The notes under the pieces are model-generated. The model saw nothing but the letters and a program-made list of their open reading frames with translations, was not told the DNA's origin and searched no databases. Position numbers and translations under genes: made by a program. From positions 1-64,000 of the IMG/VR virus record IMGVR_UViG_3300031555_001586: a stretch of DNA of 64,000 nt; one strand, written 5' to 3'. Shown here in pieces: positions 1,016-36,043 of this stretch (its first letter is position 1; each line of letters starts with the position of its first letter). The DNA comes from a virus. Taxonomy: Duplodnaviria > Caudoviricetes.

Positions 1016-1029
1016 TTAAATTCTACCTT

Positions 1030-1455: not shown

Positions 1456-1475
1456 ATAACTTTACCTCTTAAAAC

Positions 1476-2101: not shown

Positions 2102-2114
2102 ATTTTCCACTTCC

Positions 2115-2300: not shown

Positions 2301-2326
2301 AAATTTTCCACCTTAAAATCACTTTT

Positions 2327-2527: not shown

Positions 2528-2548
2528 TTAATTCTCCTCCACTTAAAA

Positions 2549-2842: not shown

Positions 2843-2869
2843 AATAAACCTCTTAAAATGCGTCTTTTA

Positions 2870-3103: not shown

Positions 3104-3131
3104 TTATTTTCCATCCCTTAAAATCCGCAAT

Positions 3132-3413: not shown

Positions 3414-3440
3414 ATATACATTTACCTCTTAAAGTTTCTT

Positions 3441-3722: not shown

Positions 3723-3735
3723 ATGTATTTACCTC

Positions 3736-4503: not shown

Positions 4504-4535
4504 TCAACCACTCCAAAGTCGATAAAACTTGTATT

Positions 4536-4727
4536 TTAAAATTCCATCTTGCCTACAACATACTTTTCTTCCATGAAATTAAATGCTTTTCTGTCCAGAC
4601 CGCACTCTTCTTTCTTAATCAGAAAAAGTTGCTTTGCCATATAAACATCCATTTCGCTTGCATAAATTCCAATCGGCTCATAATCATCATCAAAAACATG
4701 TCTTGCTTTTAACAACCAAACTTCCAT
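4536..4727 (-). CDS. hypothetical phage protein
   Basis: 63-aa ORF, SD AGGAG, stop within site 4523-4538. Confidence 0.6.
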   Translation of the reverse strand: MEVWLLKARHVFDDDYEPIGIYASEMDVYMAKQLFLIKKEECGLDRKAFNFMEEKYVVGKMEF

Positions 4728-5955: not shown

Positions 5956-6762
5956 TTAGTCAGTAATTTCCACTTCATATCCCATCATAGCATCGTAACA
6001 AGACTTTGTAATATTGCCTTTAGAATATTCCATTTTGGCAACTTGTTTGACTAATTTTTCTTTATGGTTTTTGTATGCACAAAATGCTAGTTTCGGCGTA
6101 CCATAATAGCCCAAATAATCTCTCTCACCAGTAATCGGATTCATACATCTAGCTATAAATCCATCACGATTGTTACACTTTACAACCCCGATAGGTAAAA
6201 CTCCTCTGTGCAAATCATGTTTAACAAATAATTTATTTACATTATATGGAACTAAACAACAAGTGCTTGGAGAATATACTTTGTTGCCTTTAATTAAAAT
6301 ATCTTTATCAATATGCCATCCTTCATTGTTGTACCATTTGTCAAAATTTTCTTGACAATGAAGCCATTCATAAAAATTATCATATAACAACCAATCTTCA
6401 CAACAAGTAACATCTTTATAAGTAGGATATTTTTCTTTTACTTTTTTATCATAACTTCTCAAAAGAATATTCTGCCACGCATCATATTCTTTTACATGTT
6501 TTCCATCGTTCCATGTTGGATATTTATTTCCTGTCATTCCTACACCACAAACAACTGGATAATATGGATTTTTTACATTTCCCCTTTTGAAGTTCGTATA
6601 TTGCGTATGGACTCTCCCTCGATATTCGTCTTGAAATTCTACCACTATATTAACAGCGTCAATATATTCTACAATTTTCATTTTACAACCTTGTTTGTTA
6701 ACACCTTCTTCTCCAAGTCTTTCCGCAATTTGTTTTTCTACAAAACTTGTCCTTCTCCCCAT
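5956..6762 (-). CDS. free-standing HNH-like homing endonuclease (paralog of 3736-4503)
   Basis: Same motif set, e.g. HIDKDILIKGNKVYSPSTCCLVP. Confidence 0.7.
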   Translation of the reverse strand: MGRRTSFVEKQIAERLGEEGVNKQGCKMKIVEYIDAVNIVVEFQDEYRGRVHTQYTNFKRGNVKNPYYPVVCGVGMTGNKYPTWNDGKHVKEYDAWQNILLRSYDKKVKEKYPTYKDVTCCEDWLLYDNFYEWLHCQENFDKWYNNEGWHIDKDILIKGNKVYSPSTCCLVPYNVNKLFVKHDLHRGVLPIGVVKCNNRDGFIARCMNPITGERDYLGYYGTPKLAFCAYKNHKEKLVKQVAKMEYSKGNITKSCYDAMMGYEVEITD

Positions 6763-6806
6763 ATATCTTCCTTTCTCTGCTTATAAATTACCCTAACCTT
6801 CTATCT

Positions 6807-6918
6807 GACCACCGTACATTTTGTACGGTGCTTATATCAAAATTCACCATGACCACCGTACATTTTGTACGGTTTTTTTCCGTTCATACATATAAGTATA
6901 TATTATATATAAGTATAC
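6807..6918. repeat. double-palindrome module A: two ACCGTACA-TTT-TGTACGGT 44 bp apart plus AT-rich tract
   Basis: Palindromes start at 6811 and 6855; inverted copy at 31755-31870. Confidence 0.85.
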
Positions 6919-8654: not shown

Positions 8655-8954
8655 TCAACAGTAATAATCAAACTCATATAGTCCACCACTAGCGTTTACA
8701 TATTCTTCTACGTCGGGAACATGAATCATCAAGCTATCTTTCGCATCTTCAAATGCAAAATATCCGTTTTCAACAACATCTTCATCGTATTCATAATGTG
8801 CAAGAATCATATTAATAAGATTTTCCATTGTGGTTTCAACTTCATAATTCTTGCTTCTAATCCATACAGCCATATAATCCATATCGCACCATTTTTCTTT
8901 TGGATACTTGCTATAATCTTCTTCTTCATACCAGTTACCATACCAATCTACCAT
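8655..8954 (-). CDS. acidic hypothetical protein
   Basis: 99-aa D/E/Y-rich ORF with SD AGGAGG and its own promoter. Confidence 0.7.
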   Translation of the reverse strand: MVDWYGNWYEEEDYSKYPKEKWCDMDYMAVWIRSKNYEVETTMENLINMILAHYEYDEDVVENGYFAFEDAKDSLMIHVPDVEEYVNASGGLYEFDYYC

Positions 8955-11358: not shown

Positions 11359-12117
11359 TTAACAATTTTCAATAAAAAAGAAATTGTTATCCCTTAAATA
11401 ATCTGGTGTATCTAATTCTCCATTTCTAATTTTTCTAATAATATTTCTATCTATTTTTTCTTCATCGCAAAATTTTCTTATACTATCGTATGTTTTACCG
11501 TTGTATGAAACTTTTATATTTTTAGGCTTTTGATAGTCGTAATCGCACATTTCTTTATCGATATACCTAAGTCCTTTTTGATACCATTCTAATGGCATTT
11601 TGCTTTTACCAGACAACCAATCTTTTATGCTCGAATATGGTATGTTAAAATATTCCGCACAATCTTTAGCGCAATCAAAAATAATTCCATCACAAATAGT
11701 CTTTCTTGCAAAATGAGATTTTCCGCCAATATTCGCATTTCTAAAATTATTTCTATTTTCTTCTGTTGGAATCCAACCTCTATTGACACCGCCACCAATA
11801 TTCAAATTGTAACCATTTGAATTTTCTGCTCCAATATACGAATTATATTTTTGTATATAAAATACTTCTCTTTCGTCTAGTTGCTTAACATCACATTCTT
11901 CTATTAATTCATATGAAAAATTTTCTACGCCATACTTTCTAAATGCCTTATATAAAACACTATTATTATTTTCAATTTCCCATATATGCTTTTTTAATCT
12001 ACGATAAACATCAACACTCTGCCCTATATAAACTTTGCCATTAATTTTATTCTCTATCTTATATATGCCACTTACTTTTTTTGTAAATGGAATTAAATTA
12101 CTAATCTTAATTTCCAT
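11359..12117 (-). CDS. GIY-YIG homing endonuclease
   Basis: SGIYKIENKINGKVYIGQS..RR...H and NGYN motifs. Confidence 0.9.
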   Translation of the reverse strand: MEIKISNLIPFTKKVSGIYKIENKINGKVYIGQSVDVYRRLKKHIWEIENNNSVLYKAFRKYGVENFSYELIEECDVKQLDEREVFYIQKYNSYIGAENSNGYNLNIGGGVNRGWIPTEENRNNFRNANIGGKSHFARKTICDGIIFDCAKDCAEYFNIPYSSIKDWLSGKSKMPLEWYQKGLRYIDKEMCDYDYQKPKNIKVSYNGKTYDSIRKFCDEEKIDRNIIRKIRNGELDTPDYLRDNNFFFIENC

Positions 12118-12843: not shown

Positions 12844-13704
12844 TTAAGAAACAGTAGGTACTTCCATGCCAAGAATATATTTCATTGCCTTTTCAGCCTT
12901 GCCACTTGCAGATACAATAAAACGATTGTCGTTTCTCAAAACCTTTAACCAACTCTGGATATATGCAGCAGAATTTTTAAAAGTTTTAGAAGTTTCAATT
13001 CCAACATGATTCATAAGGAACGCCGAACCAATTTCGGCAATCAATTCTTCCTTGCTGTAATCCTCAGAACCAAAACCAGCAAGTTTAACACCGCTATCCA
13101 ATCTGCCAAGTCTGTCTCTGTGCCCTGTGCTGTGAATCATTTCATGGAACAGCGTACTATAAAACTCAGCGATATCCTTATACTGTTCCTTGCAAGGGAC
13201 TTGAATGTAATCCATCATAGGACTATAGAAAGCATCATTGCTTACCACTTCTTTGATAAGAATGTTTTCTCTTTCCTTGTAATTGTTCTTAATCTTCTCT
13301 GCTTCTTCGATAGGCTCATGGTTAATAGGTTTAATATCTTTAGGCTCGATACCATCTACCTGTGACACATGAAATACATTAATATATTTCAAAAGAGGAA
13401 TAGATTTCTTTTCCACTTTGCCATTCTTAACTTCTTCTGTCTGAAAAATCTTCCAGAACACTACGATTTCAGATTTTTCACCCTTGCGAACCTTACCACC
13501 CAAATCGCTCCACTGTTTGTAAGTAGCGTATTCACCTTCATGCTTCAAAAGCATCTGATTCAAAAGGGAATATGGCTTCTTGCTTACTCTATTGTAAGCG
13601 CCACTTGCTACACCGCTCCAAGGCTTAGACCAAGGAATGACACCATTTTCCAACTGCTCAATAATTCTGTTTGTTACCTCTTCATAGATATTAAACTTTG
13701 CCAT
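12844..13704 (-). CDS. ardC: ArdC-family ssDNA-binding antirestriction protein (DUF1738 plus zincin-like domain)
   Basis: IPWSKPW, YATYKQW..LGGKVRKGEK, FHEMIHSTGH and YSKEELIAEIGSAFL. Confidence 0.9.
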   Translation of the reverse strand: MAKFNIYEEVTNRIIEQLENGVIPWSKPWSGVASGAYNRVSKKPYSLLNQMLLKHEGEYATYKQWSDLGGKVRKGEKSEIVVFWKIFQTEEVKNGKVEKKSIPLLKYINVFHVSQVDGIEPKDIKPINHEPIEEAEKIKNNYKERENILIKEVVSNDAFYSPMMDYIQVPCKEQYKDIAEFYSTLFHEMIHSTGHRDRLGRLDSGVKLAGFGSEDYSKEELIAEIGSAFLMNHVGIETSKTFKNSAAYIQSWLKVLRNDNRFIVSASGKAEKAMKYILGMEVPTVS

Positions 13705-13940: not shown

Positions 13941-14297
13941 TTAGTCTGCAAGATACATCATAAACTTATCCAAATCTTCATATTCCAGACTATCGAGTTC
14001 GCCGTTTTTATTCATACGACACACGATACAACGACTATAAATTTTGATATTGCTTTCTGGAATAACGGCAAGGGGCTTTACCTTGTGAGACAATTCTTCC
14101 TCTTGATACTTATTGTAGACAAGAACGATATTATTTGTATTAGGAATCTTAATAATCGTTCTATCAATCGGTTCAGTTACACCGATTGAATCATCCAGAT
14201 AACCGAGAATAAAATGGTCAAGTTTTTCCAGATTGATTTCTGTCTTTGTTTTATTGCCATAAAATGCCTGTGCAATAACTGTAATCTTCTTATTCAT
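13941..14297 (-). CDS. hypothetical protein (possibly DUF3846-like)
   Basis: 118-aa ORF; weak resemblance only. Confidence 0.55.
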   Translation of the reverse strand: MNKKITVIAQAFYGNKTKTEINLEKLDHFILGYLDDSIGVTEPIDRTIIKIPNTNNIVLVYNKYQEEELSHKVKPLAVIPESNIKIYSRCIVCRMNKNGELDSLEYEDLDKFMMYLAD

Positions 14298-14314
14298 ATT
14301 TATAATCCCCTTTA

Positions 14315-15016
14315 TCAGCTATTTACCTTTTCATTCTTTTTGTCACTAGGCTTTACTTCCTTGCAAACCTGATAAAATCCATTGACTTCATCATCTTCAA
14401 TAATCAGCGCTGTTAACGCTCCACCAAAGACGCAACCAGTATCAATATCAATGTTATAAGCAAAAGTATATACTGGCTTGCTGATATCATTCAGCGTCAA
14501 TGTTGGAGTATGCCCAAAGACAACTGTCTTATGATATTCTTTTGTAGTATAAATAAACGGCTCTCTTATCCACAACAAAGTCTCTTTGTCTTGTTCTTCG
14601 ATAGGCTTATAAACGTCTACACCAGCATGAACATAAATAAAATGTTCATCTTCATGATATAAAGGAAGAGTTCTAATCCACATCATATCGTCTTCAAGTT
14701 GCTTATCAAAACCATGGTAAGAATCTATTGTGTTATAACCACCATTAAAAAGCCAATTTCTTTCTCCGTTCCTATAATAATCCAGCATCATATCTTCATG
14801 ATTACCCATCAGTGCAATTACATTATCATTATTTTCCTGCAAGCTTCTAACAAGTTCAATTACTTTTCGACTATCCTCACCTCTATCAATATAGTCTCCA
14901 AGAAAAACTAGTTTATCTGTATTCTTATTGTATTCACCGCTTGTTTCCAATTCAAAAAGCAATTCTTTTAGTTCATTGTAACAACCATGGATATCGCTAA
15001 TCACTATTGTTTTCAT
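14315..15016 (-). CDS. PPP-family Ser/Thr protein phosphatase (metallophosphoesterase)
   Basis: DIHG, GDYIDRG, GNHE, HAG, GHTP and IDTGCVFGG motifs. Confidence 0.9.
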   Translation of the reverse strand: MKTIVISDIHGCYNELKELLFELETSGEYNKNTDKLVFLGDYIDRGEDSRKVIELVRSLQENNDNVIALMGNHEDMMLDYYRNGERNWLFNGGYNTIDSYHGFDKQLEDDMMWIRTLPLYHEDEHFIYVHAGVDVYKPIEEQDKETLLWIREPFIYTTKEYHKTVVFGHTPTLTLNDISKPVYTFAYNIDIDTGCVFGGALTALIIEDDEVNGFYQVCKEVKPSDKKNEKVNS

Positions 15017-15214
15017 TTTAATCCACTCTCTTTCAGATTTTATTCATTGGCTATACCTCCTATTCAATTTTAAATTCCGCTACGGTTTATCAAGATAAAT
15101 TCTGTACATCATAATAACCACTTCCATATATTTAATATTTACTATATTTAAATTATACTATAACTTTATTAGTTTGTCAAGTATCTTTTTTGAATTTTCT
15201 GTAAATTTATTGTG

Positions 15215-17595
15215 TCAATTATAGATAAAATTATTTCTGCCAATGTATTCTCCACATTCATAGTCTTCATCACAATAGCCAGAATACCATGTAAGTTCTC
15301 CGTGCTTATCTGTAAGTCCAATTAGTTTACACATGCAAGTAGCTTCATTATTACCACCAACAATAACTTCCATATTGTTCGCATATCTACCAATCATTTT
15401 CCATTTAGGCATAATAATTTCCTCCATATAAAATTGCGTTTTTATTAGTTGTCAATGTATGTGATTACAAATGTACACAATCCAAAAGACATTCCAGCAA
15501 TTTGAATATTAACAATTTTTCCGTCATGTTCTGCAAGAAATTTGTTCAACTCTCTATCATCATCATGGTCTGCAATAATAATTTTTACTCTAATTCCAGC
15601 AACTCCATAAATATTTTCCATATAATTTTACCTCTTATAATAATCTTCTTTATGCCTTGTAAATCTCTCTGTAAGCTTCTGCAAGGTTATCTGCTGTGCA
15701 ATAGAATTTTCCATCCAGATAAACGTTGTAATGGTCACGGTCATGTACAATCTTGTAAGACATATTTACCTCCGCTCAACAAGACATTTCATACAGAATT
15801 TCAACGGTATCAATATCATTCCAATCAAATTCCGTCTCATCCATTTCCTGCATAATTTCCAGTGCTTCTTCCTCGCTGTCTGCCATAATAGTTGCATAAC
15901 CACATTTCGTTGCCATAACTCTATATCTTGTCATATTGTACCTCCATGTTAAAATCATGCTTTTATGTTAATCAATTCTAACTTCTTTGTTATTAATAAT
16001 CACCATGTCTGTATATGCCCAGTGATATTCATAATTATAATCTTCAAATCCATCAGTTGACTTCATAACACCAATCATCTTCTTTGCTTTTTCTTCCGTT
16101 GTTGCATATCCAACAGTATAATCGTCCCCATCATAATCAATAAGTTTTACACAAAAAATTTTCATAACAAATCCTCCATCTTAAAATCTCACTTTTAATC
16201 GTTACTTTTCGGAACAAGTTCTAAATCACTTACTTTTACATTGTATTCATAGTTCATATAACGCAAAGTTGTAAACTTGAATCTATTCCAACTATCAAAA
16301 ACTAGAAACTCCGTTCCCTCTGGAATATCTGGAGAATCCCATCTCTTTTGTCTTTGTTTATTTCGGTCACTTAGTTCTCTTTTAGTTCTGATATACACCA
16401 TTTCAGCAACCTCCACTTAAAACCACACTTTTATGTGCTACATATAATATTTAGATGCAAAATTCCAAGGTGTCATATTTCTATAATCAACTGCTTGTTC
16501 TGTTTCTGCATCGTCACAATCCATTGTTTCTATTTCTTGTTCTGTAAATAATTTATTGTAATTATCCGATTCTTGATTACAACAAACATATTCATCACTC
16601 AATGCGTGATTCAAAGTACACCAATAACATTCTTTGCATTTCATAATTTGTTTACCTCATAAAATTATTCTTTTATATTCTTATTTATTATTCAATATAA
16701 TCATCGTAAATAAGAATTTCCATATAACCTTTATAGATAATACTATCTTGAATGATAATATCACCATACTTATACTGAAAATCCATAAGCTGTTTTAGAG
16801 TGCCTATCTTAACCATCCAAACTTTTTCCTTGCCGTCTTTATGGGGGATAACTTTCTGCTCAGCTTCTTCGCAAGGCTGAATTTTTCCATCCCATTGGCT
16901 TGCTCTTTTAACAATGTATTTCATAAATCCTCCATTTGAGATTATAAAACCGTTATTTTATACCCAATCATCGTCACTATCGCCATCATAATCAACAGCA
17001 CCAATCTGTCTGCCCTCTGTGATTACAACTGCATTAAAATCTTCCCCATAAAAAGCGTTGATATTGTGTTCGCTAACACTATTAATATTCATTGCAAAAT
17101 CAGTTCCATAATTCTGCATCATACCAATTCTAACTTCCATATCGCCATCAAAGTTTTCCAGTTCTTCAATCAGTTCTCTTACAGTCATGTCAAATCCTCC
17201 ACTTAAAACTGTTCTTTTATTACCATTCAATTTTTGTCAACTTAAACATTGATTCTACTCTAATACCTTTTCCTTGTGATTTAATGTATTCTCTCATTTC
17301 TTTTTCGGTATCAAAGTATAAAACTGTTTTACTCCAAGTACCATCTAACGGATTCCAACCTTCACATTTCAACATATATTCTTTATACATATCCAAATCC
17401 TCCACTTAAAATTAGGTTTTTATTATTTATTTTTCTACATTGTACTCGTCAACTTGTCCAAAGATTTCAATACATACAGTTTCATTGTCTGTAATATACG
17501 GATTAAGATTAACTATGATATATCTATACTCTGCAAACATCAAAGAGATAACAATTAAAAATCTAATGGTTACTCCAATAACTTTCTTTTTCATA
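15215..17595 (-). CDS. cluster of about 12 tiny hypothetical ORFs (37-80 aa), reported as one block
   Basis: Includes 15215-15427, 15776-15958, 15968-16165, 16195-16416, 16438-16644, 16688-16924, 16958-17188 and 17220-17405, each with an SD and separated by TAAAA-N6-TTTTA sites. Confidence 0.7.
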
Positions 17596-17936
17596 TTCAA
17601 ATCCTCCGTTATATAAGTTTATTAGTTATTTATTTTGTTTGCTTCTTTTCTTTACACCCATATTATACCATAACTTTTACTATTTGTCAAGTATCTTTTT
17701 CAAATTTTTCCATTTATTTTTTCTGACTTATTTCCCTTAACTCTTTTGTTCTGCCTGTATTATATCATATAGTTATCTACTTGTCAAGTATTTTTTAAAA
17801 TTATTTTGTATTTTATACCAGTCCATATATTTTGTATATTATACCCGTTCATGTTTTCGTATAATATACTGCTGCGTATAATATACAATGTGTATATAAG
17901 AAAAGCTAGGATTTCTCCTAGCTATTTCTTTATTTG

Positions 17937-18329
17937 TTATACATAATAAACATATGTTTTAATATCTTCATTTTTCCAGTTACTAAAGTCTATATCAAGA
18001 TTCAAAACTTTAACAGCTTCTTCAATAACCTGTTTGCCGTCTTCATTGCCAAACAAATCCATCAAATCAAAATCTTTTTCACCCCATAAATATCGGTCAA
18101 TCTTTCGGAAATTTTCAAATCCTACATCATAACCAAGAACGGTATTTAAATTTGCATATCGGTCTGCGTCGCAAGCGTCAATACCATTTCCCATACAATT
18201 ATAATAGAATACAAATAAATCGTCTGGCGCTTCATTCATATAAAAACTTTTTTCGTTTTCACAATTTTCATAACCAAAATATTTTACAATTTCCATTTTG
18301 ATATTGTCTGTGACTTGAATGTTTTTCAT
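17937..18329 (-). CDS. hypothetical phage protein
   Basis: 130-aa acidic ORF with SD AGGAGG. Confidence 0.7.
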   Translation of the reverse strand: MKNIQVTDNIKMEIVKYFGYENCENEKSFYMNEAPDDLFVFYYNCMGNGIDACDADRYANLNTVLGYDVGFENFRKIDRYLWGEKDFDLMDLFGNEDGKQVIEEAVKVLNLDIDFSNWKNEDIKTYVYYV

Positions 18330-18346
18330 TTTAATTCATCCTCCTA

Positions 18347-18592
18347 TTACCAATTTTGTGTTCTAATAACTGCATTGTGTTTCATAGCATATCCAAAGAA
18401 ATCTTCTGTGTGGTCTGCTGTGTATTCGTTTAGAAATTCTTCCAAACTGCCGAAATAATCACTTTGACGCTCATTGAAATACTGCTCAACAAAATCCTCT
18501 GCTACCAATACTTCTGTTAAATTACTGCTTTCGTCATGTGGTTCAATTGTGTCACGGTATACACAAATCCAAAGTTCTTTCATGATTTCCAA
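18347..18592 (-). CDS. hypothetical phage protein
   Basis: 81-aa acidic ORF with SD AAGGAG. Confidence 0.65.
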   Translation of the reverse strand: MEIMKELWICVYRDTIEPHDESSNLTEVLVAEDFVEQYFNERQSDYFGSLEEFLNEYTADHTEDFFGYAMKHNAVIRTQNW

Positions 18593-18611
18593 CTCCTTAT
18601 AAGTTTAGTTG

Positions 18612-19241
18612 TTAAAAGATTGTGCCATCCTCAAGAAATTCCCAATCATTAGCTTCGCAAGCTTCTTCCAAATCTTCATCAGAAATTTCATAAAAGTATT
18701 CATAGCCCCATTTTTCATAAGCATTGCAAAGAGTTCCAAAAATATCTCTTACAAGCTTTTCAAACTTTTCCAGAACATTTGTATTAATGTCTCTATAACC
18801 ATAATAATTTTCTAAGTCATACGCCCAATCTTCTGCAATATCAATGCGGTATGCCAAAGAGTAGCAATAGCGCCCATTCATAGGAAGTTTAATTGCTCCA
18901 CACTGTTCTGCATAGTTGAGAATAGTTTTCTTTTCCTTTTCAGTCAATACATTTTCGTATTCTTCCAACTGTGTACCGCCATTGTGCTTTTCCAGACAGT
19001 TAAAAATATCTTCTGCGTAAATCTTACCATAGATATTAAATCCATCTCCCTGACAATATCCAAGAGAGTATTCAACATCTAGCTCATTTTTACCAAAGAG
19101 ATTTTTTAAATCCTGCTTGCAATCTTCGGTAAAAATATATGCTTCCTGCCCATTCAAGTACCACTGCTTAACCTTTTCTTTTGCGCTGTCGGACAACTCA
19201 TTAAATTTGTAAACATCGTAATTAACAGTTGCGGTTCTCAT
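18612..19241 (-). CDS. conserved phage/plasmid hypothetical protein
   Basis: YKFNELSDSAKEK N-terminus and C-terminal WEFLEDG; own promoter. Confidence 0.7.
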   Translation of the reverse strand: MRTATVNYDVYKFNELSDSAKEKVKQWYLNGQEAYIFTEDCKQDLKNLFGKNELDVEYSLGYCQGDGFNIYGKIYAEDIFNCLEKHNGGTQLEEYENVLTEKEKKTILNYAEQCGAIKLPMNGRYCYSLAYRIDIAEDWAYDLENYYGYRDINTNVLEKFEKLVRDIFGTLCNAYEKWGYEYFYEISDEDLEEACEANDWEFLEDGTIF

Positions 19242-19499
19242 AGTAAATTCTCCTTTGTTGTTTTATTTGTTGTTTTATAACCTTATTTGTTGTTCTGTTT
19301 TATATCTTCTTTATGGTTATATTATATACCATATTTTATTATTTGTCAAGTAGTTTTCTAAATATTTTTCATTTATTTTCATTGTACTTAGATTTGTTTT
19401 CTTTTGTATATTATACGCAGCTACTATGTTTTGTATATTATACTAATCCGTATAATATACCGCTGGTATAAAAAATAAAGGATGGAGAAATCTCCATCC

Positions 19500-19748
19500 T
19501 TACAGATTCAATCTAATAATTTCTTCTAGTTCTTCTCTTTTAATAAAATCTTGCTTTTGGTCTGCCAGTTCTACAATCTTTTCGATTTCAAAAGATACAG
19601 ATTCAAACCACATCATGTATGGACTAACGGCCTTTTTAATTTCTTTATCTTTTTCTTTATTAATATGAAAACTTGCATTTTCTAAGCTGGCTAAACTCTG
19701 TAATCTTTTTGCACAACTTAACAATGCTTCTTTTTCTAGTCCAGTCAT
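19500..19748 (-). CDS. hypothetical phage protein
   Basis: 82-aa ORF with SD AGGAG. Confidence 0.65.
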   Translation of the reverse strand: MTGLEKEALLSCAKRLQSLASLENASFHINKEKDKEIKKAVSPYMMWFESVSFEIEKIVELADQKQDFIKREELEEIIRLNL

Positions 19749-19764
19749 TTTGTATCACTCCTAT

Positions 19765-20028
19765 TTATTTAATTCCTTGTTTTTCTGTTACTTCTCCACT
19801 TTCCATATCGCATACTAGAATAACAATTTTCCCATTACGTTCAAATTTCCATTTGTTGATTGCTGGATTCACATACCATTCATCAAAATCAGATTCTCCA
19901 TAATGTTTTTTATAATATTTGTTTAAACGGCTGTTTAGTTGTTTCTCTGTTAATGCTTTCATTTTTATCTTCTCCTTGTTTTTGTTGTTGTTTATTTCCT
20001 TTACAATTATATTATAGCATATATTCAC
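19765..20028 (-). CDS. hypothetical phage protein
   Basis: True start is probably MKALTEK after SD AAGGAG. Confidence 0.6.
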   Translation of the reverse strand: MNICYNIIVKEINNNKNKEKIKMKALTEKQLNSRLNKYYKKHYGESDFDEWYVNPAINKWKFERNGKIVILVCDMESGEVTEKQGIK

Positions 20029-20149
20029 AATATGTCAAGTAGTTTTTATAATATTTTCTTCTTTGTATAATATACCGTTTTAATTTAATTGTATAATATA
20101 CCACTGGTATAAAAAAGAGGAATTGACTTTTGCCAATTCCTCAATATAT

Positions 20150-20467
20150 TTATTCTTCAATTAGATAGCAATATTCAACCTTCCAAGGATTTTCGTCATA
20201 CATATACCAATCAAGACGAACACCATCATCAGAACCATCTAAGCAATTGGCAAAAACGGAATTGCTCAACTGGTTAGGTAAGAACATTTTCTGGTCACTG
20301 GTAGTCTGGTAACTTCTCTGTGTTACTGTGTACGGCTTATTAAAGTTGTCCTCAGTGAATACCACAACACCCTTTAAGACCTTTTCATTGCCCTTGTGGG
20401 TGTGGTTATGCTCCTTATTAAAATTCCGCATAGCCATAACAAATTCGTTCCAAGTGATTTTCTTCAT
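20150..20467 (-). CDS. conserved phage hypothetical protein
   Basis: 105-aa ORF with own promoter and terminator. Confidence 0.7.
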   Translation of the reverse strand: MKKITWNEFVMAMRNFNKEHNHTHKGNEKVLKGVVVFTEDNFNKPYTVTQRSYQTTSDQKMFLPNQLSNSVFANCLDGSDDGVRLDWYMYDENPWKVEYCYLIEE

Positions 20468-20675
20468 AGTGATTACTTCCTTTCAGTATTATGTTGTTGT
20501 CCTTATTGACACTGATATTATATCATATAAAAACATAGTTGTCAAGTACCTTTTATGAATTTTCTGTAAACAAATTATAGATATGATTTTGTATATTATA
20601 CCGAGCGGTAATTATATTACTGTATATTATACGAAAACGTGCCGTCTGGTATTTTGGTATATTATACGAACGTAT

Positions 20676-20822
20676 AAAAAAAAGAGTGGTGAATTTCTTC
20701 ACCACTCAAAAAACAAACAGCATATTATTTTATCCGAACTATCACAACAACAACAACATAACTATGCTTTCGCATAGACAACAACAAAAGAAAGGAAAAA
20801 GTTGTATGCTGTTTGTTTTATT
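20676..20822 (-). ncRNA. putative ~145-nt small RNA (anti-SD / anti-leader)
   Basis: Consensus promoter (-35 at 20852-57, -10 at 20829-34) and intrinsic terminator (20676-20707) with no SD-led ORF between; 15-bp closing stem and a GAAA tetraloop hairpin. Confidence 0.6.
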
Positions 20823-20876
20823 ACCTAGATTATAGCATATATTTTCCTGTTTGTCAAGTACCTTTTTTAATTATTT

Positions 20877-21167
20877 TTATTTTCCTTCAAATGTGCTATC
20901 ACCATTAAATCTAGGAAGAAAATGATGAAATTCCGTTGCTGGAAACTTGCTGCGGTCAATATTATTTACAATTCCTACAATATCATGTGCAAAATTAAAA
21001 TTGTCTGCGTTCAGCCAATCTTCCAAGCGCATATTAAAAGTATTGTCTGCGCTCTCAATGTCCATTAGTAATGTGGAGCGCTGTCCATGATAGATTCCAA
21101 GTTCTTCTGCTCTCTCTGCAATCTTAACATACATCATAAAACGTTCTTTGGTTTTCATTTTGTCCAC
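20877..21167 (-). CDS. hypothetical protein (DUF6874-like)
   Basis: LLMDIE...RLEDWLNAD.FNFAHDIVGI...FLPRF pattern. Confidence 0.6.
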   Translation of the reverse strand: MDKMKTKERFMMYVKIAERAEELGIYHGQRSTLLMDIESADNTFNMRLEDWLNADNFNFAHDIVGIVNNIDRSKFPATEFHHFLPRFNGDSTFEGK

Positions 21168-21365
21168 CTCATTTGTATTTTGTTTGTTCTGTTCTTTATG
21201 GTTCTATTATAACATGTATTTTCTATTTGTCAAGTAGTTATTTATATAATTTTGATTTTATTTCCATGAAGTATATTATACCAAATTGTATATTATACTG
21301 GCCTGTATATTATACGCAGCTATATAAAATAAAGGTGGAGAATTTTCTCCACCTCTTTATATTTA

Positions 21366-21755
21366 TTAAATGAATAGCGTTCTTACTTCGTATTCTTCGA
21401 AAGTCTTTTTGTTAAACAGTTCAATAACCGTTTCAAGTTCTTCCGTCACAATTTCCATCTGCTTTTCGTTTAGTGCGATTGTGTTTCCTTCTTCGTCGTG
21501 GCTTGCAAAGATACAATTACCATAGACGACATCAAGAATTTTTCCTTCTTTCTTGTCTACAATCGCAATCTCTGGCTTTAGGCCATCAATAAATTTTCCT
21601 TCGTCATTGATAATTGTATCAATTCCATTGTTTCGGAATGTTTCGCCAAGATAGGGAATTTCGATATAACCTCCCACAATCTTCTGCAATTCTTCCAGTG
21701 TGTTATTAATTTCTTTTGCTTCCAATTTTCCATTGCTAAGAGTTAAAACTTTCAT
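21366..21755 (-). CDS. DUF3846-domain protein
   Basis: NTLEELQKIVGGYIE and IINDEGK motifs. Confidence 0.75.
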   Translation of the reverse strand: MKVLTLSNGKLEAKEINNTLEELQKIVGGYIEIPYLGETFRNNGIDTIINDEGKFIDGLKPEIAIVDKKEGKILDVVYGNCIFASHDEEGNTIALNEKQMEIVTEELETVIELFNKKTFEEYEVRTLFI

Positions 21756-21960
21756 TTTTAATCTTCCTTTCTTTGTGTGTTGTATTGCTTACAAGTACAT
21801 TATATCATATTTTAGTCATTTGTCAAGTAGTTATTTTAATATTCTTTCAAGATTCTTCCTATTATTTGTATAATATACTACTGGTATATTGTTTGTATAA
21901 TATACTTGATAGTATAAAAAAGACAGTGGATATTTTTCCACTGTCTTGAATAATGTTAGT

Positions 21961-22137
21961 TTATATAATTCCGTTTTCTCTAAACTCTTTTCTTAATCCA
22001 AATTGTCTTGCCAGCTTTTCAAGTCTAATTTGTTGTAAGTGCAATTCTAACCAACTATAATTATGTTCTTCAAAATTCCGTTGCCATTCAATAGCTTCTT
22101 GTCTTGCTTTTTCTTTGTTAATTTGATATTTAGTCAT
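21961..22137 (-). CDS. small hypothetical protein
   Basis: MTKYQINKEKARQEAIEWQ..., SD GAGG; below the ORF-track cut-off. Confidence 0.6.
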   Translation of the reverse strand: MTKYQINKEKARQEAIEWQRNFEEHNYSWLELHLQQIRLEKLARQFGLRKEFRENGII

Positions 22138-22809
22138 GTTTTATACCTCATTAAAATCGTTTTTATGTATTATGCGACTTCAATAATAATTTTTCCGTTG
22201 TTCGTCCATACTCCAATTACATCAACATCAAAGAACGGGCACATAACTTTTTTCCCTTCAAACATTGTTCTATGGTTATTATAGTCTGCAATTCTTATAA
22301 CTTCCCCACCATCAATAACAGATAGAAACATAGATAAATTTATTTTCATAAAATTTCCTCCATAAAATGTTCTTTTATGTGTTAGTTTACTTTCCATTTT
22401 TCAATATATGGCTCAGTAGTTTTCCAATATTTATCATTGTTCAATTTTTCCAATTCTTCTTTTGCTTTCTTTTCTGATGAAAATATTTTATGTATTCCTT
22501 CATCACCATAACAACCAGCTATAATTACATATACATATTTCATATATTTTTACCTCTTGAAATTGCTTTTTAATTTATTGTCGTGTTGTTTTTTATCTGT
22601 GGATATTATATCACAATAATATTAGTTTGTCAAGTAGTTTTTATAAAATTCTTGAAATTTTCCACAGGTATTTTCCGTATAATATACCTGTGGTATGTAG
22701 ATTTGTATAATACGTTTTCCGTATAATATACGAATACGTCTTGCGTATATTATACCGTAAGATATAAAAGTAAGACGGTGAATTTCTCCACCGTCTATAA
22801 CTTTAATTG

Positions 22810-23202
22810 TTATTCTTCGATATAAAGTCTAATCTTTTCTCCGTATTCATCCAGTTCGCAAAGCATAGGATTAAAAATATTTCCATCTCCGTCATAACCG
22901 GAAATAAAAGCTGGATATTCCTTGCAATCTTTATCAAAGCCCATTATACCAAAACGGCTAAGAAATTGTCCGATTGCGTACCATCTATTATGATATCTAA
23001 ATGCGTTTACGATTCTTTTGTTGCTGTCTTCTAGTTTTTCTCCGTAACAATAAAGACTATGTTTTTCCGTTACCTCGATTGTTTGAATGGTAATCCAACG
23101 GCTGATTCTTTTTAGGTTTTTCATGGCGTTTTTCTCCTTTTGATTTTGTTGTTGTAATAGTGTGTTGTCTTGTATAGCTTTTATAGTTATATTATAGCAC
23201 AA
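22810..23202 (-). CDS. hypothetical phage protein
   Basis: True start is probably MKNLKRISR after SD AAGGAG. Confidence 0.6.
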   Translation of the reverse strand: MCYNITIKAIQDNTLLQQQNQKEKNAMKNLKRISRWITIQTIEVTEKHSLYCYGEKLEDSNKRIVNAFRYHNRWYAIGQFLSRFGIMGFDKDCKEYPAFISGYDGDGNIFNPMLCELDEYGEKIRLYIEE

Positions 23203-23395
23203 TTTTATGTATTGTCAAGTAGTTTTAAAAAATTTTCTGAAAAATGTTTTGGAATTTTCCGTTGCTGTGAGTGTATATTATACTACGCATAGCAGTTTGT
23301 ATATTATACTAATTTTCTTCTGGCGTATATTATACCAAATAATAAAAAAAGAAAAGGTGACGGGATTTTCCGCCACCTTAATTAGAATTGTTCTT

Positions 23396-23656
23396 TTATA
23401 TTGTTACAAGTCCATCTTTAATAAGATGAAAAACTACATTTGGAATACTGGTACAATCGCAATCATCAAAATTAAATACGATTGCAACTTCCCCATCTCC
23501 ACGCTGAATTAAAATAGTAGCACAACACTCTTCGTCTTCGATTTCGTATTCACAAATTCCATATTTTTCACTAATGATATTTTTCTTAAAACCATAGGAT
23601 TTAAGAGATTCTTCGTTCAAAAATTTTGCTTTAATCTTCATAATTAAATCCCCCAT
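23396..23656 (-). CDS. hypothetical phage protein
   Basis: 86-aa ORF next to site 23659-23674. Confidence 0.6.
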   Translation of the reverse strand: MGDLIMKIKAKFLNEESLKSYGFKKNIISEKYGICEYEIEDEECCATILIQRGDGEVAIVFNFDDCDCTSIPNVVFHLIKDGLVTI

Positions 23657-23678
23657 ATTAAAATTGTCCTTTTATTAG

Positions 23679-23888
23679 TCAAACGAGTGCTGTGCAGTTT
23701 CCTGTTTCCTCGCAGTAGTGATAATATATAACTTTCATATCATCATAGATGATATCGGTCATTGCACCATAATCATCAGTTAATGTTACGGCTTTTCCGT
23801 CTTGTCCTTTTGTGATGATTCTGAAATTCTTCGGTGCTTTTGGCAGGGTCATAAACAAATTCCAAACCGTCATGATTATTTCTCCCAT
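23679..23888 (-). CDS. hypothetical phage protein
   Basis: 69-aa ORF next to site 23893-23908. Confidence 0.55.
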   Translation of the reverse strand: MGEIIMTVWNLFMTLPKAPKNFRIITKGQDGKAVTLTDDYGAMTDIIYDDMKVIYYHYCEETGNCTALV

Positions 23889-23923
23889 ATCATAAAATTA
23901 TCTTTTTAACTTGTATAATGTTA

Positions 23924-24205
23924 TTAGTTATCAATGATTTCTAAGCTATCCCACCAAGCTTTACCGCCACCAGAAATTCCATAATAGTCAATAAAGGAAT
24001 TTATATGCCTCATAGTAGTTGCGCTGTAGCCCCACCAAAGTCTCTGGAATTGTCCATTGACGATTCTTGCTACAATGGTGTTATAACTTTTTAGTTCGAT
24101 TATTCCGTTATCGTGCTCGATTGCTACGGCCTTATTATAGAAAGATTTTCTTCCGTCAATAGGGGAAAGAGTAATAATTTTAGGGGTGTTGTTAGCGTGT
24201 TTCAT
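23924..24205 (-). CDS. conserved phage hypothetical protein
   Basis: KSFYNKA, LKSYNTIVA and SATTMRHINSF; SD AGAAAGGA. Confidence 0.7.
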   Translation of the reverse strand: MKHANNTPKIITLSPIDGRKSFYNKAVAIEHDNGIIELKSYNTIVARIVNGQFQRLWWGYSATTMRHINSFIDYYGISGGGKAWWDSLEIIDN

Positions 24206-24482
24206 GGTGATTTTCCTTTCTTTGGTGTTTGTGTGTTGTTTTGTTTTGTTGTAGTTATTATAACATAATTTTATTTGTTTGTCAAGTAGTTTATGGAATA
24301 TTTATGGAATATTTTTGTTATTTTGATAATTATTTTTAGAAGTGGTGTGGAGGTGGTATGGGGTGTGTGGTGTGGTATGTGTATATTATACGGTTATTTA
24401 GTAGTTTGATATATGTATAATATACTATTGATATAAAAATAAAAAAGAGTGGAACTTGCTCCACTCTTTATATATTTAATTG

Positions 24483-24632
24483 TTATAGATTGTTACCGAA
24501 AAGTGTTTCGTCAATTAGACGGTCAACAAGTTCGCAAATTTCCCATTCTTCCATATTGCTGATATTTTTTTCGTAGTGTTCGCAAATATCCTTTGCTTGT
24601 TCATAGGTAAGAATAAAGTTAATGTTTTCCAT
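24483..24632 (-). CDS. small acidic protein (49 aa)
   Basis: MENINFILTYEQAKDICEHY..., SD AAGGAG, own promoter and terminator. Confidence 0.6.
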   Translation of the reverse strand: MENINFILTYEQAKDICEHYEKNISNMEEWEICELVDRLIDETLFGNNL

Positions 24633-25133
24633 GTTGTTTCTCCTTTATAATTTTGGTAATTTTGGTTTTGTTATATACCTTTTTGGTATGGCTGTATTAT
24701 ATCATGTTTGGAATATTTTGTCAAGTGGTATTTTTTATTTTTTTTGGTGTGTTGTAGATTATAAAATTATTATCGAGAAACGATAAATTTATAGAATTTA
24801 TAGATTGTATTTTTGTGTGTATCTATTTTTAATCAGAATCACAATAAAACTTTTTCGTACCGTTACTCAAAACACTATCAACAGTTTTTCCACAACCCAA
24901 TATAAGTTTCCAAATAACCCCATACAAGTTTTCCAAAAACCGCTCATCGGGTTTTCAAAACCCTATCATCAGTTATTTAATAACCTAACTTAATTTGTAT
25001 AATATACACCAGTATCCACTGATAATGTGTATAACTCGAAACTTTTATAACTCATAATTTTCATCACTCGTTCGTCCCACAATCCGTATATTATACCAAA
25101 TCTTCCAGCTCAAATATTCACTCAAATATTCAC

Positions 25134-31754: not shown

Positions 31755-31870
31755 ATAGTATTTTTATATATCTATATACTTATATGTATAGAACGGAAAA
31801 AAACCGTACATTTTGTACGGTGGTCAAAGCCAAAAATACAATTAGCACCGTACATTTTGTACGGTGGTCA
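31755..31870. repeat. double-palindrome module B (inverted copy of 6807-6918)
   Basis: Palindromes start at 31803 and 31847, the same 44-bp spacing, with the same TATATACTTATATGTAT..GAACGGAAAAAAA flank. Confidence 0.85.
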
Positions 31871-31909
31871 AAGCAAATTTCAAACATTAAAGGTGGTGAT
31901 AGAATCAGT

Positions 31910-33094: not shown

Positions 33095-33127
33095 TAACTA
33101 ATAAGGTTATAAAGGGAAGGCGATAAA

Positions 33128-36043
33128 ATGAGTTTGGATGTTCAAGTGCAAATTCTGAGCGTAGATACAGGTAACTTTTACAGCAACAAGGAAGCGTCGT
33201 TGCACTGGTTAAATCACAAGCTCAGAATTGAAAGAAATGAATTAAAGAAAACAGAAAATAAAATCATGGATGAATTATCAAAATATGGCATAGACAAAAA
33301 TAATTTAGATGCAATTTTAAATCATGAATATGACTATAGTATTTGGAGTAATGATTACTCTACTATATTTGAACTAGGAAATAAATATTGCAGAATAAAA
33401 GAATTACTCAAATGGAAAAATGAAAAAATAAAAGAATCTAAGGACAAATTGCTCAAATTATTATCAAATAAAATCGAAAAGAATATAGAAACAAACGGTA
33501 ATCATCATATTAGAGAACTAAGAAACCTTAATCCTTCTGGAAACAAAGAAGATATTTTCAAATATGCAGACAAACCATTTAGTGATAATAAGATTATTTC
33601 AGTGTTTGATTCCGCTTTTACTAGAATGATTGGCGCAAAACAAGATGAACTTACCGAAGATTTTATGGTTATTCAGGTATATTACTTTGACATAATTAAA
33701 GATTTAATTTATCACGGTTTTACATATAAAGGAGAAAAATATATTTATTTTACTTCTTCTGCTGGACAGATTAGAACCAAGAAAACAGTCTTCATCAAAG
33801 AATCTGTATGGAATAAATATGAAAAAACAATTATGTGTGGTCTTACTATTGATGAAATTAATCGAAAAGGTGGCAATAATCCAAATAAACATTTGGCATA
33901 TATGGCATTAACCAATTCCGCCACTGATGTTTGGAAAGAATTTGATATTGATAAAACTATTGTCATCGAAGACTTTGAAACAAACGTATATGGAACTTAT
34001 GATTTAGTTGATGATAATGATTATTCTATAAAACGAATATCTGATTATGTACCTATTCCTCATACAGATGGTGCTGGTATGATGCTTCCTTGTATGGGCA
34101 AAAATCGCATGGTTCGTCTTCCTTGGGTAAAAGGATTGCTTGGTTCTTTTGATTATGTAAAATTCATAGAAGAATATAATTGTTCTCCTGTCATCAAAGA
34201 TATTTACGGAAAAGAACATGATATTATCGCAGAAGATATTCAAATCATTTTTACAAAATCACAGTTTAAAATGTGGAAATATTATGATTCTTGGGAACAA
34301 TATAAAGAATATTATAAGCAGTATGGTTGTTCTGCTGGCTATACTAATATAGAAGAAGATAAGATTAAAGATGCTACTATTAATTATCAAATGCTTCAAA
34401 CCCTTACAGACATTACCGATGAAGAAATGGATAAGATTGCAGACAGGTCTAATTCTAAATTAAATAATATTTGTTCTTCTATTAATGATATGAAGCGTGC
34501 ATTTGGCATTACTCCATATAACGATAATATGACATATTTGCAACAGGCTATTAATCTATATCCAGATTTAATGAATGATGAATATGTTAAAATTACCTTG
34601 AGAGAAATAAAAAATAGTATGGTCAAAAGATTTAAATCTGGAAGTTTATCTGTTTATGGAAAATATACATTTTTGTTACCAGACCTTTATGCTGCTTGTC
34701 AGTATTGGTTTATGGGAATTGAAAACCCAGAAGGACTATTGAAAGACGGAGAGGTTTTCTGTTGGTTGTTTAGAAAGAATGAAAAATTAGATTGTCTAAG
34801 AAGTCCACATTTGTACAAGGAACATGCCATTAGAAAAAATGTTGCTTGTAATAAAAACAAAGAACGACAAGAACAAATTAGAAAATGGTTTACTACTGAC
34901 GCTATATACACAAGCTGCCATGATTTAATTAGTAAGATTCTCCAATTTGATGTCGATGGGGACAAGAGTTTGGTTGTGGCAGATGAAAGTATAATTTCTA
35001 TTGCCGAGAGAAATATGGCTGATATAGTTCCATTATATTACAACATGAAAAAAGCGTCTCCTGTTCAATTAAATAATCAAACTATTTATGACGGATTAAA
35101 TGCTGCCTTTGTTGGTGGTAATATTGGTATTTACAGTAATAATATTTCAAAGATATGGAATAGTGAAGTATTTGTAAATGGTACAAACAAAGAAAAACAA
35201 GACGCAATCAACTTAGTTAAATTATTATGTATGGAAAATAATTTTGTGATTGATTACGCCAAAACGTTGTATAAACCAGAAAGGCCAAAACATATCCACG
35301 AAGAAATTACTGCTTTTACAAAAGGCAACGTCCCTCATTTCTTTATTTATGCGAAAGATAAGAAAGAGTCTCAAGTTGAAAACTTAAATGAAAGTTTTGT
35401 AAATAAGTTAGACCGTAAAATCATAAATCCAAGAATAAATTCAAGAAGTATTGGTTTGAAACCAATTGATTATAAATTAATGGTTAGTAATCCAAATGTT
35501 GAATGTAATGTTGTATTTAAAAAGAATGGAAAAATAAATGAAGAAAAAAGCGACCCTATGATTGTTAAGTATTTTGAATTAAATAATAAATACCATTTCA
35601 AGGTAAATATGGAATGTTCTGATATTCAAAAGGACGGACAATTAAACAATAGTCAATTAAAAGAAGTTCTATTCTTTAAAAGGGTAGGAAATGAAATTAA
35701 ACATGAGCTTTCTCAATTTGGATATACTGATAGTGAAATTGCAGATATTTTAGTTAAATTACTATATCATGTAAAGCCAAGTAGTCATAAAAGCGTATTG
35801 TGGTTTAGCTATGGCAATTATATAGTGGAAAATCTAAAAAAACATCTTAAACTAGCTACTAAAGTAATTCAGTGTGTTGATTGCGGCGAATGGTTTGAAG
35901 TCAATACAAAAGATACTGAAAGTTGCAGGTGTAAAGAATGTGTAAAAGAGCATAAAAGAATGATAAAAAGAGAACAAAATAAACGAGCATATGAGAAAAG
36001 AAAATTAAGTATGTCGCAAACCAGTTTCGAAAACAACCAATAA
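33128..36043 (+). CDS. yonO: single-subunit DNA-dependent RNA polymerase (SPbeta YonO-like)
   Basis: 971 aa; HTDGAGM, RSPH and the catalytic LQFDVDGD motif; C-terminal Zn ribbon; SPbeta-like gene context. Confidence 0.85.
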   Translation: MSLDVQVQILSVDTGNFYSNKEASLHWLNHKLRIERNELKKTENKIMDELSKYGIDKNNLDAILNHEYDYSIWSNDYSTIFELGNKYCRIKELLKWKNEKIKESKDKLLKLLSNKIEKNIETNGNHHIRELRNLNPSGNKEDIFKYADKPFSDNKIISVFDSAFTRMIGAKQDELTEDFMVIQVYYFDIIKDLIYHGFTYKGEKYIYFTSSAGQIRTKKTVFIKESVWNKYEKTIMCGLTIDEINRKGGNNPNKHLAYMALTNSATDVWKEFDIDKTIVIEDFETNVYGTYDLVDDNDYSIKRISDYVPIPHTDGAGMMLPCMGKNRMVRLPWVKGLLGSFDYVKFIEEYNCSPVIKDIYGKEHDIIAEDIQIIFTKSQFKMWKYYDSWEQYKEYYKQYGCSAGYTNIEEDKIKDATINYQMLQTLTDITDEEMDKIADRSNSKLNNICSSINDMKRAFGITPYNDNMTYLQQAINLYPDLMNDEYVKITLREIKNSMVKRFKSGSLSVYGKYTFLLPDLYAACQYWFMGIENPEGLLKDGEVFCWLFRKNEKLDCLRSPHLYKEHAIRKNVACNKNKERQEQIRKWFTTDAIYTSCHDLISKILQFDVDGDKSLVVADESIISIAERNMADIVPLYYNMKKASPVQLNNQTIYDGLNAAFVGGNIGIYSNNISKIWNSEVFVNGTNKEKQDAINLVKLLCMENNFVIDYAKTLYKPERPKHIHEEITAFTKGNVPHFFIYAKDKKESQVENLNESFVNKLDRKIINPRINSRSIGLKPIDYKLMVSNPNVECNVVFKKNGKINEEKSDPMIVKYFELNNKYHFKVNMECSDIQKDGQLNNSQLKEVLFFKRVGNEIKHELSQFGYTDSEIADILVKLLYHVKPSSHKSVLWFSYGNYIVENLKKHLKLATKVIQCVDCGEWFEVNTKDTESCRCKECVKEHKRMIKREQNKRAYEKRKLSMSQTSFENNQ

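Follow-up and report, generated by a model that had tools for sequence, protein, structure and literature searches.

How phages reshuffle many small accessory genes while the order of their genomes stays intact is a long-standing question. Illegitimate recombination is usually invoked because most mosaic boundaries show no conserved sequence. The question is raised here by a 16-bp element, TAAAA-N6-TTTTA, which lies between small genes in the Caudoviricetes phage of IMG/VR record IMGVR_UViG_3300031555_001586. This record, labeled G000 below, has 89,745 bp and a GC (guanine plus cytosine) content of 33%; the window analyzed is its first 64 kb, and the second and third runs of small genes (runs 2 and 3) are the subject of this study. 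From comparison with related phages we propose, with a probability of roughly 0.4, that each W-TAAAA-N6-TTTTA-W site (W, A or T) is a position-specific recombination joint between expression-ready gene cassettes. The joints, which number dozens and are built alike throughout this clade of large Firmicute phages of the gut, carry slot-specific 6-bp labels, and the genes between them are replaced. This opens the linker idea of modular phage evolution to direct testing, and accessory-gene cassettes in metagenomic phages may be delimited from sequence alone.

The pattern TAAAA-N6-TTTTA occurs 17 times in the window, where 1.42 matches are expected and the maximum of 100 dinucleotide-preserving shuffles was 5. 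In the whole G000 genome there are 21 sites with the 6-bp spacer, and other spacers of 2-10 bp gave only 0-3. With a GC content of 33%, A-runs and T-runs are frequent, so that the sites might be a chance or compositional artifact of an AT-rich genome; however, this is ruled out by the shuffle and spacer counts and by reversed-pattern controls, which gave 0-5 matches in the relatives where the pattern itself gave 4-57, and its probability is practically negligible. The ten exact sites that the first-pass annotation had located in runs 2 and 3 are all present (Table 1), and their centers (the six bases of N6) all differ, as it had said. The variants that it had noted near 22152, 22363 and 22558 are real, with spacers of 4, 5 and 5 bp, respectively, the last one also with one arm mismatch. 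Its statement that the structural operon has no site needs a small correction because the exact site at 51789 lies in the same context as the others; another exact match is found at 54559. Its orientation is also to be corrected, as the genes of the runs and the functional orientation of their sites are on the minus strand.

Run 2 is a single transcription unit (17690-15215, minus strand) of eleven open reading frames (ORFs), which stops before the next promoter at 15180. An exact site is present at eight of its ten internal junctions, and the two site-free junctions are inside a three-gene block between the centers GCATGA and ACGCAA. Run 3 is composed of two units: one (24285-23354, run 3a) with two exact sites and a copy with one mismatch, and the other (22633-21920, run 3b) with three degenerate copies, which look like decayed joints. 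The ORFs between sites encode 37-93 amino acids (aa), each with a Shine-Dalgarno (SD) sequence and ATG, and those of run 2 have only weak PHROG matches, to families of unknown function. Twelve perfect (12/12) TTGACA-16/17-TATAAT promoters were found in 15000-24600, all at unit starts and none at a site. A promoter at each site was thus rejected, and the earlier claim that the sites are placed inside operons of small ORFs, never at promoter-led starts, is borne out.

The nearest relatives of G000 are 110-156-kb contigs from animal-gut metagenomes, some of which were binned in Clostridia or Lachnospiraceae metagenome-assembled genomes (MAGs); the INPHARED collection held no near-identical phage record. 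The backbones of the related phages are 71-76% identical over the alignable 31-45% of each genome, and the G000 backbone is 72-73% identical to those of the relatives, that is, as distant from them as they are from one another. The motif is abundant in most of these phages. G003 (153 kb) has 57 sites with the 6-bp spacer against 2-11 for other spacers, and the numbers in G006, G007, G008, G009, G010, G013, G014 and G015 are 61, 51, 59, 40, 44, 43, 28 and 9, respectively, while the more distant G004, G005 and G012 have 4-10 sites only. Four of the related phage contigs come from MAGs whose other contigs have almost no matches, and a host-wide signal was rejected on this ground.

What distinguishes the sites is the behavior of their centers. 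Identical centers were found in 280 of 25,979 cross-genome site pairs, 11-fold more than the 24.8 expected from position-specific base frequencies, whereas pairs with one mismatch were depleted to 0.4-fold (129 against 331 expected). In 263 of the 280 identical-center pairs both flanking ORFs had no homology in blastp (threshold of E<1e-4 on short proteins, backed by slot length differences), and in the pairs inspected the proteins on both sides were wholly different, as were their lengths. Identity in these unrelated-flank pairs is 100% over the 16 bp, is slightly raised at position -1 and across the SD sequence, and falls to background (about 0.3) beyond about -2 and +24. Paralogy or tandem duplication as the source of the repeats was rejected, since the ORFs are unrelated and the identity is confined to 16 bp. 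Because the backbones are only 71-76% identical, the centers are better conserved than coding sequence.

The order of the centers is also conserved. Pairs among G003, G006, G007, G008 and G010 have 13-34 centers in common, with Kendall tau of 0.99-1.0 in nine of ten pairs (the G009 contig is circularly permuted), and no center is repeated within a genome in the seven genomes used for the site statistics below. Among 112 slots bounded by the same two adjacent centers, only three contain homologous genes, and the median length difference is 342 bp. Gene replacements between these relatives are thus bounded by the site. The reverse case also occurs: homologous small genes sometimes stand behind different centers, and in 40 pairs with one homologous flank the centers differ at two or more positions, in none at exactly one. 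The same series GAATTA>ATGTAA>GGATAA>TGACGA>GAGTGA was found on two short metagenome contigs that had been fetched for another purpose. Of the pairs among the 115 distinct centers, 48 are one mismatch apart, fewer than the 77 +/- 11 expected (P about 0.0025); co-occurrence within one genome is limited to 11 of the 48. In the relatives, therefore, we found the opposite of a fixed gene order with motif-free orthologous junctions, as sites and center order are kept and genes are not. It is plausible that in these phages the centers are positional addresses and that the genes between them are exchanged for unrelated ones.

Two exceptions with a doubled center were found. In G015 (L279, 4240-4464) a 61-aa ORF is placed between two copies of GGATAA, and in G014 (L276, 15029-15239) a 53-aa ORF is placed between two copies of TTTCGT; each is a single unrelated cassette, and such an arrangement is what insertion with site duplication would leave. 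In G015 the GGATAA>TGACGA slot occurs a second time, at a distance of 11 kb and with other contents.

The anatomy of the site was analyzed on 249 oriented sites pooled from seven genomes. On the coding strand of G000 the upstream ORF end is followed by TAAAA-N6-TTTTA, A-G-T/A-GGAGG, and ATG 11-24 nt past the right arm; in the seven-genome set the start codon is mostly 10-17 nt past it. The sites are intergenic and face one way with respect to transcription. In 124 of about 203 sites the upstream stop codon is the left-arm TAA, and in 20 more the stop is located 3 nt before the arm. Position -1 is always A or T (0/248 G/C), and so is position +16 in 98% of the sites. The center ends in a purine in 88% of the sites, with no mirror preference at its first base, giving a strand asymmetry. 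Palindromic centers are absent (0/249 against about 2.5-5 expected), a point of little weight. In G013, a distant relative, many sites are 25-40 nt from the SD sequence and keep the 5-6-5 form. Since these sites keep their form far from the SD sequence, the arms are more than part of the ribosome-binding site.

Such placement raises the possibility that the site is an expression or silencing element, either a stoperator-like site of a dimeric regulator or a termination-reinitiation (translational coupling) signal, with exchange as a by-product. Its position at operon-internal junctions, in one orientation between stop codon and SD sequence, agrees with this idea and matches the placement of stoperators (PMC3029335, PMC9283540); the right arm abuts the SD sequence in this clade, and the 11-bp spacing of half-sites would fit a dimer on one helix face. 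However, an expression element neither needs nor explains slot-specific centers that are identical and collinear around unrelated genes, and the excess of exact over one-mismatch centers is also unexplained. Stoperators have a single asymmetric consensus with no variable core, and the stop codon is outside the arm in 39% of the sites. We regard this explanation as unlikely.

Another possibility, following from the cleavage at a hairpin that the first-pass annotation had brought up, is that the site forms an RNA hairpin in the polycistronic mRNA, which is cleaved or bound to process or stabilize single-gene transcripts. The location between cistrons on the transcribed strand and the strand asymmetry of the center are in line with this possibility. 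However, the hairpin would have five A-U pairs and a 6-nt loop, and the folding energy with forced arm pairing lies between -0.3 and +1.2 kcal/mol; two of the ten sites give no fold at all, and no Rfam family matched 14000-25000 at E up to 0.1. With a folding energy of about zero, an RNA hairpin is an unlikely place of cleavage, and the invariance of the arms leaves no covariation to look at. The conserved centers would also be left unexplained. A stable hairpin of RNA or DNA was rejected on the folding energy and the lack of an Rfam match, and this role is highly improbable.

The main rival is passive short-homology exchange (cf. PMC3029335). In this case, 16-22 bp of identity (site and SD sequence) would be a short boundary or linker at which general or phage homologous or annealing recombinases occasionally cross over, and the arms would be there for expression, as a stop codon and an AU-rich sequence before the SD sequence. 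Passive joints account for identical centers with unrelated flanks, for collinearity and for unique centers, as well as for the stop codon and SD sequence built into the flanks, and they agree with the fact that no dedicated enzyme co-occurs with the motif. However, they do not explain why the arms are exact reverse complements, why the spacer is exactly 6 bp at most sites, why both -1 and +16 are restricted to A/T, or why G013 sites away from the SD sequence keep the form. An identity of about 16-22 bp barely reaches, or falls short of, what efficient homologous exchange usually requires, and if exchange is rare, exact centers would be hard to maintain across 25% backbone divergence. We consider passive joints possible but doubtful.

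How do G000's own sites fit into this picture? G000 shares only 0-3 centers with any one relative, and no partner that shares the centers peculiar to it was found among 5 Mb of relatives. No motif-rich phage with the respective center came up in a scan of IMG/VR for GAACAG or in a scan of 185,579 GTDB genomes for GTGAGA, and a scan of JGI metagenomes anchored on homologues of the neighboring phosphatase gave no partner with G000's own centers. G013 also has a private set of centers. Run 2 of G000 occupies the same backbone interval as a run of G003 (99010-100457), upstream of an ArdA-like gene, and the genes in the two runs have no nucleotide similarity. The ORF at 21961-22137, which stands behind a degenerate site in G000, has a 50%-identical homologue in another phage (L022), where it is placed behind a canonical site with a different center. 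By architecture, clade and position, runs 2 and 3 belong to the same system. The general cassette rule proposed in the first-pass annotation thus holds for the anatomy (operon-internal junctions, eight of ten in the run 2 unit), the hairpin is not supported, and because no partner genome with the same centers was found, exchange at the ten G000 sites is what we infer from the relatives.

The joint proposed here would work as follows. The left arm would supply, or directly follow, the upstream stop codon, and the right arm would lead into the downstream SD sequence. Because the stop codon is in or before the left arm and the SD sequence after the right arm, a crossover within the 16 bp would never break a gene; after a crossover in the center, the stop codon would stay with the upstream cassette and the SD sequence with the downstream one. 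The invariant inverted arms at a fixed 6-bp distance would be the part read by a symmetric (dimeric) protein, which may be a recombinase or a nicking enzyme, and the six central bases would be the slot address, pairing being restricted to sites with the same center. If only such sites pair, co-infecting relatives would swap the contents of slots and keep gene order. Exactness of the centers would not need selection on the whole phage: cassettes with canonical joints could enter other backbones, and those with mutated joints could not.

The data call for exchange restricted to the 16-22-bp joint and for something that keeps the centers exact. An arm-reading symmetric protein with matching of centers is favored because each arm is the exact reverse complement of the other at a fixed distance and the outer flanks are restricted to A/T, because the form persists away from the SD sequence while exact centers are in excess and near-matches depleted, and because there are insertions with site duplication and, as a weak point, no palindromic centers. 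A small tyrosine recombinase with intact catalytic residues, found in G000 and in most of the relatives, also speaks for this reading. It may well be that the arms have a part in both expression and recombination. A more specific proposal is natural recombinase-mediated cassette exchange in phages. A dimeric enzyme would bind the arms, strands would be exchanged in the center, and dozens of incompatible centers would form ordered, swappable slots for small genes, probably for host takeover or counter-defense; G000 and G013 with their private sets and eight other phages with one common set would then use different recombination "dialects". This proposal is tentative and rather unlikely as it stands. 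If it is true that an enzyme reads the arms, this would suggest a new natural set of orthogonal recombination sites.

Several points weigh against position-specific joints read by a protein. All evidence is comparative and from metagenome assemblies, with no recombinant, circle or crossover observed; assembly chimeras at a 22-bp repeat should be unlikely at the usual k-mer sizes. Only four of 15 G000 centers (AGATAA, GGACAA, GTGTGG and GATAAA) recur in the pool of 130, against 1.47 in the null (P=0.05); GGACAA is also present in G014, where it directly precedes GTGTGG. For the collinear similarity of G000, P depends on the genome compared and ranges from 0.0065 to 0.89: G014 (P=0.0065) and G007 (P=0.04) give significant values, G003, G006 and G008 do not. 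The over-dispersion of centers is significant only in the large shared set and was not seen in the independent sets of G013 and G000. The absence of sites from promoter-led gene starts would likewise be predicted by an expression-linked role. The arms of characterized tyrosine recombinase sites are 11-13 bp long, and those found here are much shorter (5-6 bp). No enzyme could be tied to the sites. The small tyrosine recombinase of G000 (261 aa) belongs to the Phage_integrase family, its best solved matches are XerA/XerC-like chains, and apart from G000 it is present in most relatives (G003 and G006-G009), but it is also found in the motif-poor G005 and G012 and was not found in the motif-rich G013 (72% complete). 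Moreover, palindromes of its own, ACCGTACA-TTTT-TGTACGGT, adjoin its gene. Homologues of the DUF262 protein are present at 51-54% identity in phages of 46-48% GC without the motif.

As partner of the sites the tyrosine recombinase is a candidate only, since its presence does not track the motif. The DUF262 protein fitted nine genomes and failed on the wider sample, and the search for a single partner protein found nothing. No guide-like locus repeating the centers was found elsewhere in the genome. Two HNH-endonuclease-family paralogues (phrog_953; 3736-4503 and 5956-6762, minus strand) flank the DUF262 gene; they were rejected as partner, as homologues are present only in G008 and G009. Together with a GIY-YIG/I-TevI-like endonuclease gene (11359-12117, minus strand), they are likely homing endonucleases.

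Among described systems, the closest case is the promoter-early stem-loop (PeSL) cassettes of T4-type phages (Arbiol et al. 2010, PMC2839356). PeSLs are also short conserved intergenic elements between small non-essential ORFs in hyperplastic early regions, extending from the upstream stop to the downstream SD sequence, and they are places where genes have been inserted, deleted or replaced between relatives (PMC2839356). However, they consist of a sigma-70 promoter and a stable G/C-rich terminator stem-loop; the sites described here have neither, and the terminator-like hairpins of G000 are away from them. Because PeSLs are alike within a genome, they recombine with each other and release mini-circles, whereas here each position has a unique center that is conserved between genomes. 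The short conserved boundary (linker) sequences of lambdoid phages in the modular theory, as far as they are presented in PMC3029335 (its references 21 and 22), are likewise short sequences common to otherwise unrelated modules, with a proposed homologous reassortment that keeps order. In that account they have no common architecture; the sites in question have invariant inverted arms, fixed spacing and a slot-specific core, with dozens per genome.

The geometry resembles lox, FRT and dif sites: 5-6-5 with W at -1 and +16, and inverted arms around a non-palindromic center. In recombinase-mediated cassette exchange, heterospecific lox or FRT sites have inverted arms and an asymmetric spacer of 6-8 bp, only sites with the same spacer recombine, and several such sites along one molecule give ordered, independently exchangeable slots. 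The excess of exact centers, the depletion of one-mismatch centers, their uniqueness within a genome and the lack of palindromic centers are similar features. The differences are that the arms are 5-6 bp instead of 11-13 bp, that conservation ends on the left after 5-6 bp while the right flank is the SD sequence, and that no recombinase is linked to the sites. To our knowledge, no natural phage system of this cassette-exchange kind has been described.

Integrons share with the phage runs the one-orientation arrays of promoterless small genes behind a common promoter with palindromic sites between them, and the single-cassette insertions of G014 and G015, flanked by the same site, are a further likeness. 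Each of their attC sites measures 57-141 bp, folds in single-stranded form (paired R/L boxes) and travels with its cassette in any order. In contrast, the site found here has 16 bp, a folding energy of about 0 and a fixed order, and it belongs to the position and not to the cassette, as the identical-center pairs with two unrelated flanks indicate. Stoperators of Cluster A mycobacteriophages have one asymmetric 13-bp consensus bound by a monomeric repressor and block elongation in the prophage (PMC3029335; PMC9283540). They too are short sites that recur many times, placed in small gaps between genes close to stop and start codons, in one orientation relative to transcription, but they lack a variable core and any link to gene replacement, whereas the 6-bp center differs at every site of a phage genome here, and no repressor was found. 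Our search of the phage literature, of incomplete coverage, gave no description of position-specific cores flanked by universal arms.

Table 1. Features of runs 2 and 3 and related features in the window (positions in the window; centers read on the coding strand)
Feature	Position	Strand	Remark
Sigma-A-type consensus promoter (TTGACA-17-TATAAT, with TG)	17662-17690	-	Heads the 11-gene unit of run 2
Run 2, eleven small ORFs (37-78 aa), one orientation	15215-17594	-	GGAGG-type SD and ATG each
Run 2 ORFs, first six	17427-17594, 17220-17390, 16958-17188, 16688-16924, 16438-16644, 16195-16401	-	ORF list
Run 2 ORFs, last five	15968-16165, 15776-15934, 15650-15763, 15445-15621, 15215-15412	-	ORF list
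Site, center ACCTAA	17407-17422	-	Exact match
Site, center GAACAG	17204-17219	-	Exact match
Site, center TAACGG	16945-16960	-	Left-arm TAA is the stop of the upstream ORF
Site, center GAATAA	16660-16675	-	Exact match
Site, center GTGTGG	16418-16433	-	Same center in G006, G007, G013, G014 and G015, flanking genes unrelated
Site, center GTGAGA	16182-16197	-	Left-arm TAA is the stop codon
Site, center GCATGA	15950-15965	-	Exact match
Site, center ACGCAA	15429-15444	-	Closes three-gene slot 15776-15445
Consensus promoter of run 3a	24257-24285	-	Promoter scan
Site, center AGATAA	23893-23908	-	Between ORFs 23924-24205 and 23679-23873
Site, center GGACAA	23659-23674	-	Between ORFs 23679-23873 and 23396-23656
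One-mismatch site (TAAAAGAACAATTCTA)	23383-23398	-	End of run 3a; terminator 23354-23379 follows in place of SD
Degenerate site TAAAA-AGCAA-TTTCA	22558-22572	-	Upstream of first ORF of run 3b (22382-22543); promoter 22605-22633
Degenerate site, 5-bp spacer, TAAAA-GAACA-TTTTA	22363-22377	-	Precedes ORF 22170-22349
Degenerate site, 4-bp spacer, TAAAA-ACGA-TTTTA	22152-22165	-	Precedes ORF 21961-22137
Run 1, same system	414-4538	-	Exact sites 414, 1470, 2314, 2854, 4523; one-mismatch 688, 1017, 3119
Single exact site, stop/site/SD/ATG context	51789-51804	+	Within structural region
Small tyrosine recombinase, 261 aa	6952-7737	-	R, HxxR, H, Y catalytic residues present; candidate enzyme only, not tied to sites
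DUF262/GmrSD_N (DGKQR motif) protein	4846-5925	-	Candidate partner only; co-occurrence imperfect

As for the rest of the window, all transcription from 1 to about 31000 is on the minus strand, and the terminase, portal and tail genes are on the plus strand. A YonO-type single-chain RNA polymerase is encoded at 33128-36043. With yonO of SPbeta-like Bacillus phages and one Clostridium phage it shares 45-51% identity, and with uncultured gut and rumen phages up to 79%. Nothing supports the idea that the sites are promoters of this polymerase, for which the literature defines no promoter; the sites are mostly on the strand opposite to the late genes. The SPBRE/MrpR operator of SPbeta, a 15-bp motif at promoters, is a different element. 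Run 2 is bordered by an ArdA-like anti-restriction gene (phrog_7245; 12844-13704, minus strand) and a calcineurin-like metallophosphatase gene (14315-15016, minus strand), and these neighbors are consistent with arrays in a host-takeover or counter-defense region.

The ACCGTACA-TTTT-TGTACGGT palindromes form twin modules at 6806-6873 and 31803-31877, each with two copies 44 bp apart, and the first module is beside the recombinase gene. The modules are about 25 kb apart and inverted, and the center TTTT is on the plus strand in both despite the inverted flanks. They are candidates for the true targets of the recombinase, or for an invertible or replication-linked element. In G004 (L362-L366; for example at positions 11237, 24428, 43406, 49386 and 57576) a longer palindrome, CACA-TAAAA-N6-TTTTA-TGTG or CACT...AGTG, is common, which suggests longer arms in some lineages.

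In 15150-24300 (minus strand), an A/C-rich leader of 30-40 nt (CAACAACAA-like) separates each of the twelve perfect TTGACA-16/17-(TG)-TATAAT promoters from the SD sequence, and a clean intrinsic terminator closes most of the units. Another short motif, roughly ATAAGGTTATA(A/T)A, is found just past stop codons or before SD sequences of many genes on both strands: at 33100-33127, 38640-38653, 46470-46500, 50960-50985 and 53030-53048 on the plus strand, and upstream of 18612-19241, 8655-8954 and 4536-4727 on the minus strand. One copy of this type is directly upstream of the YonO polymerase gene. Similar motifs are present in relatives, as "aataaggttatataataaca" in G007 and "caaacaaggttatatagg" in G003, and this motif could be a transcription or processing signal.

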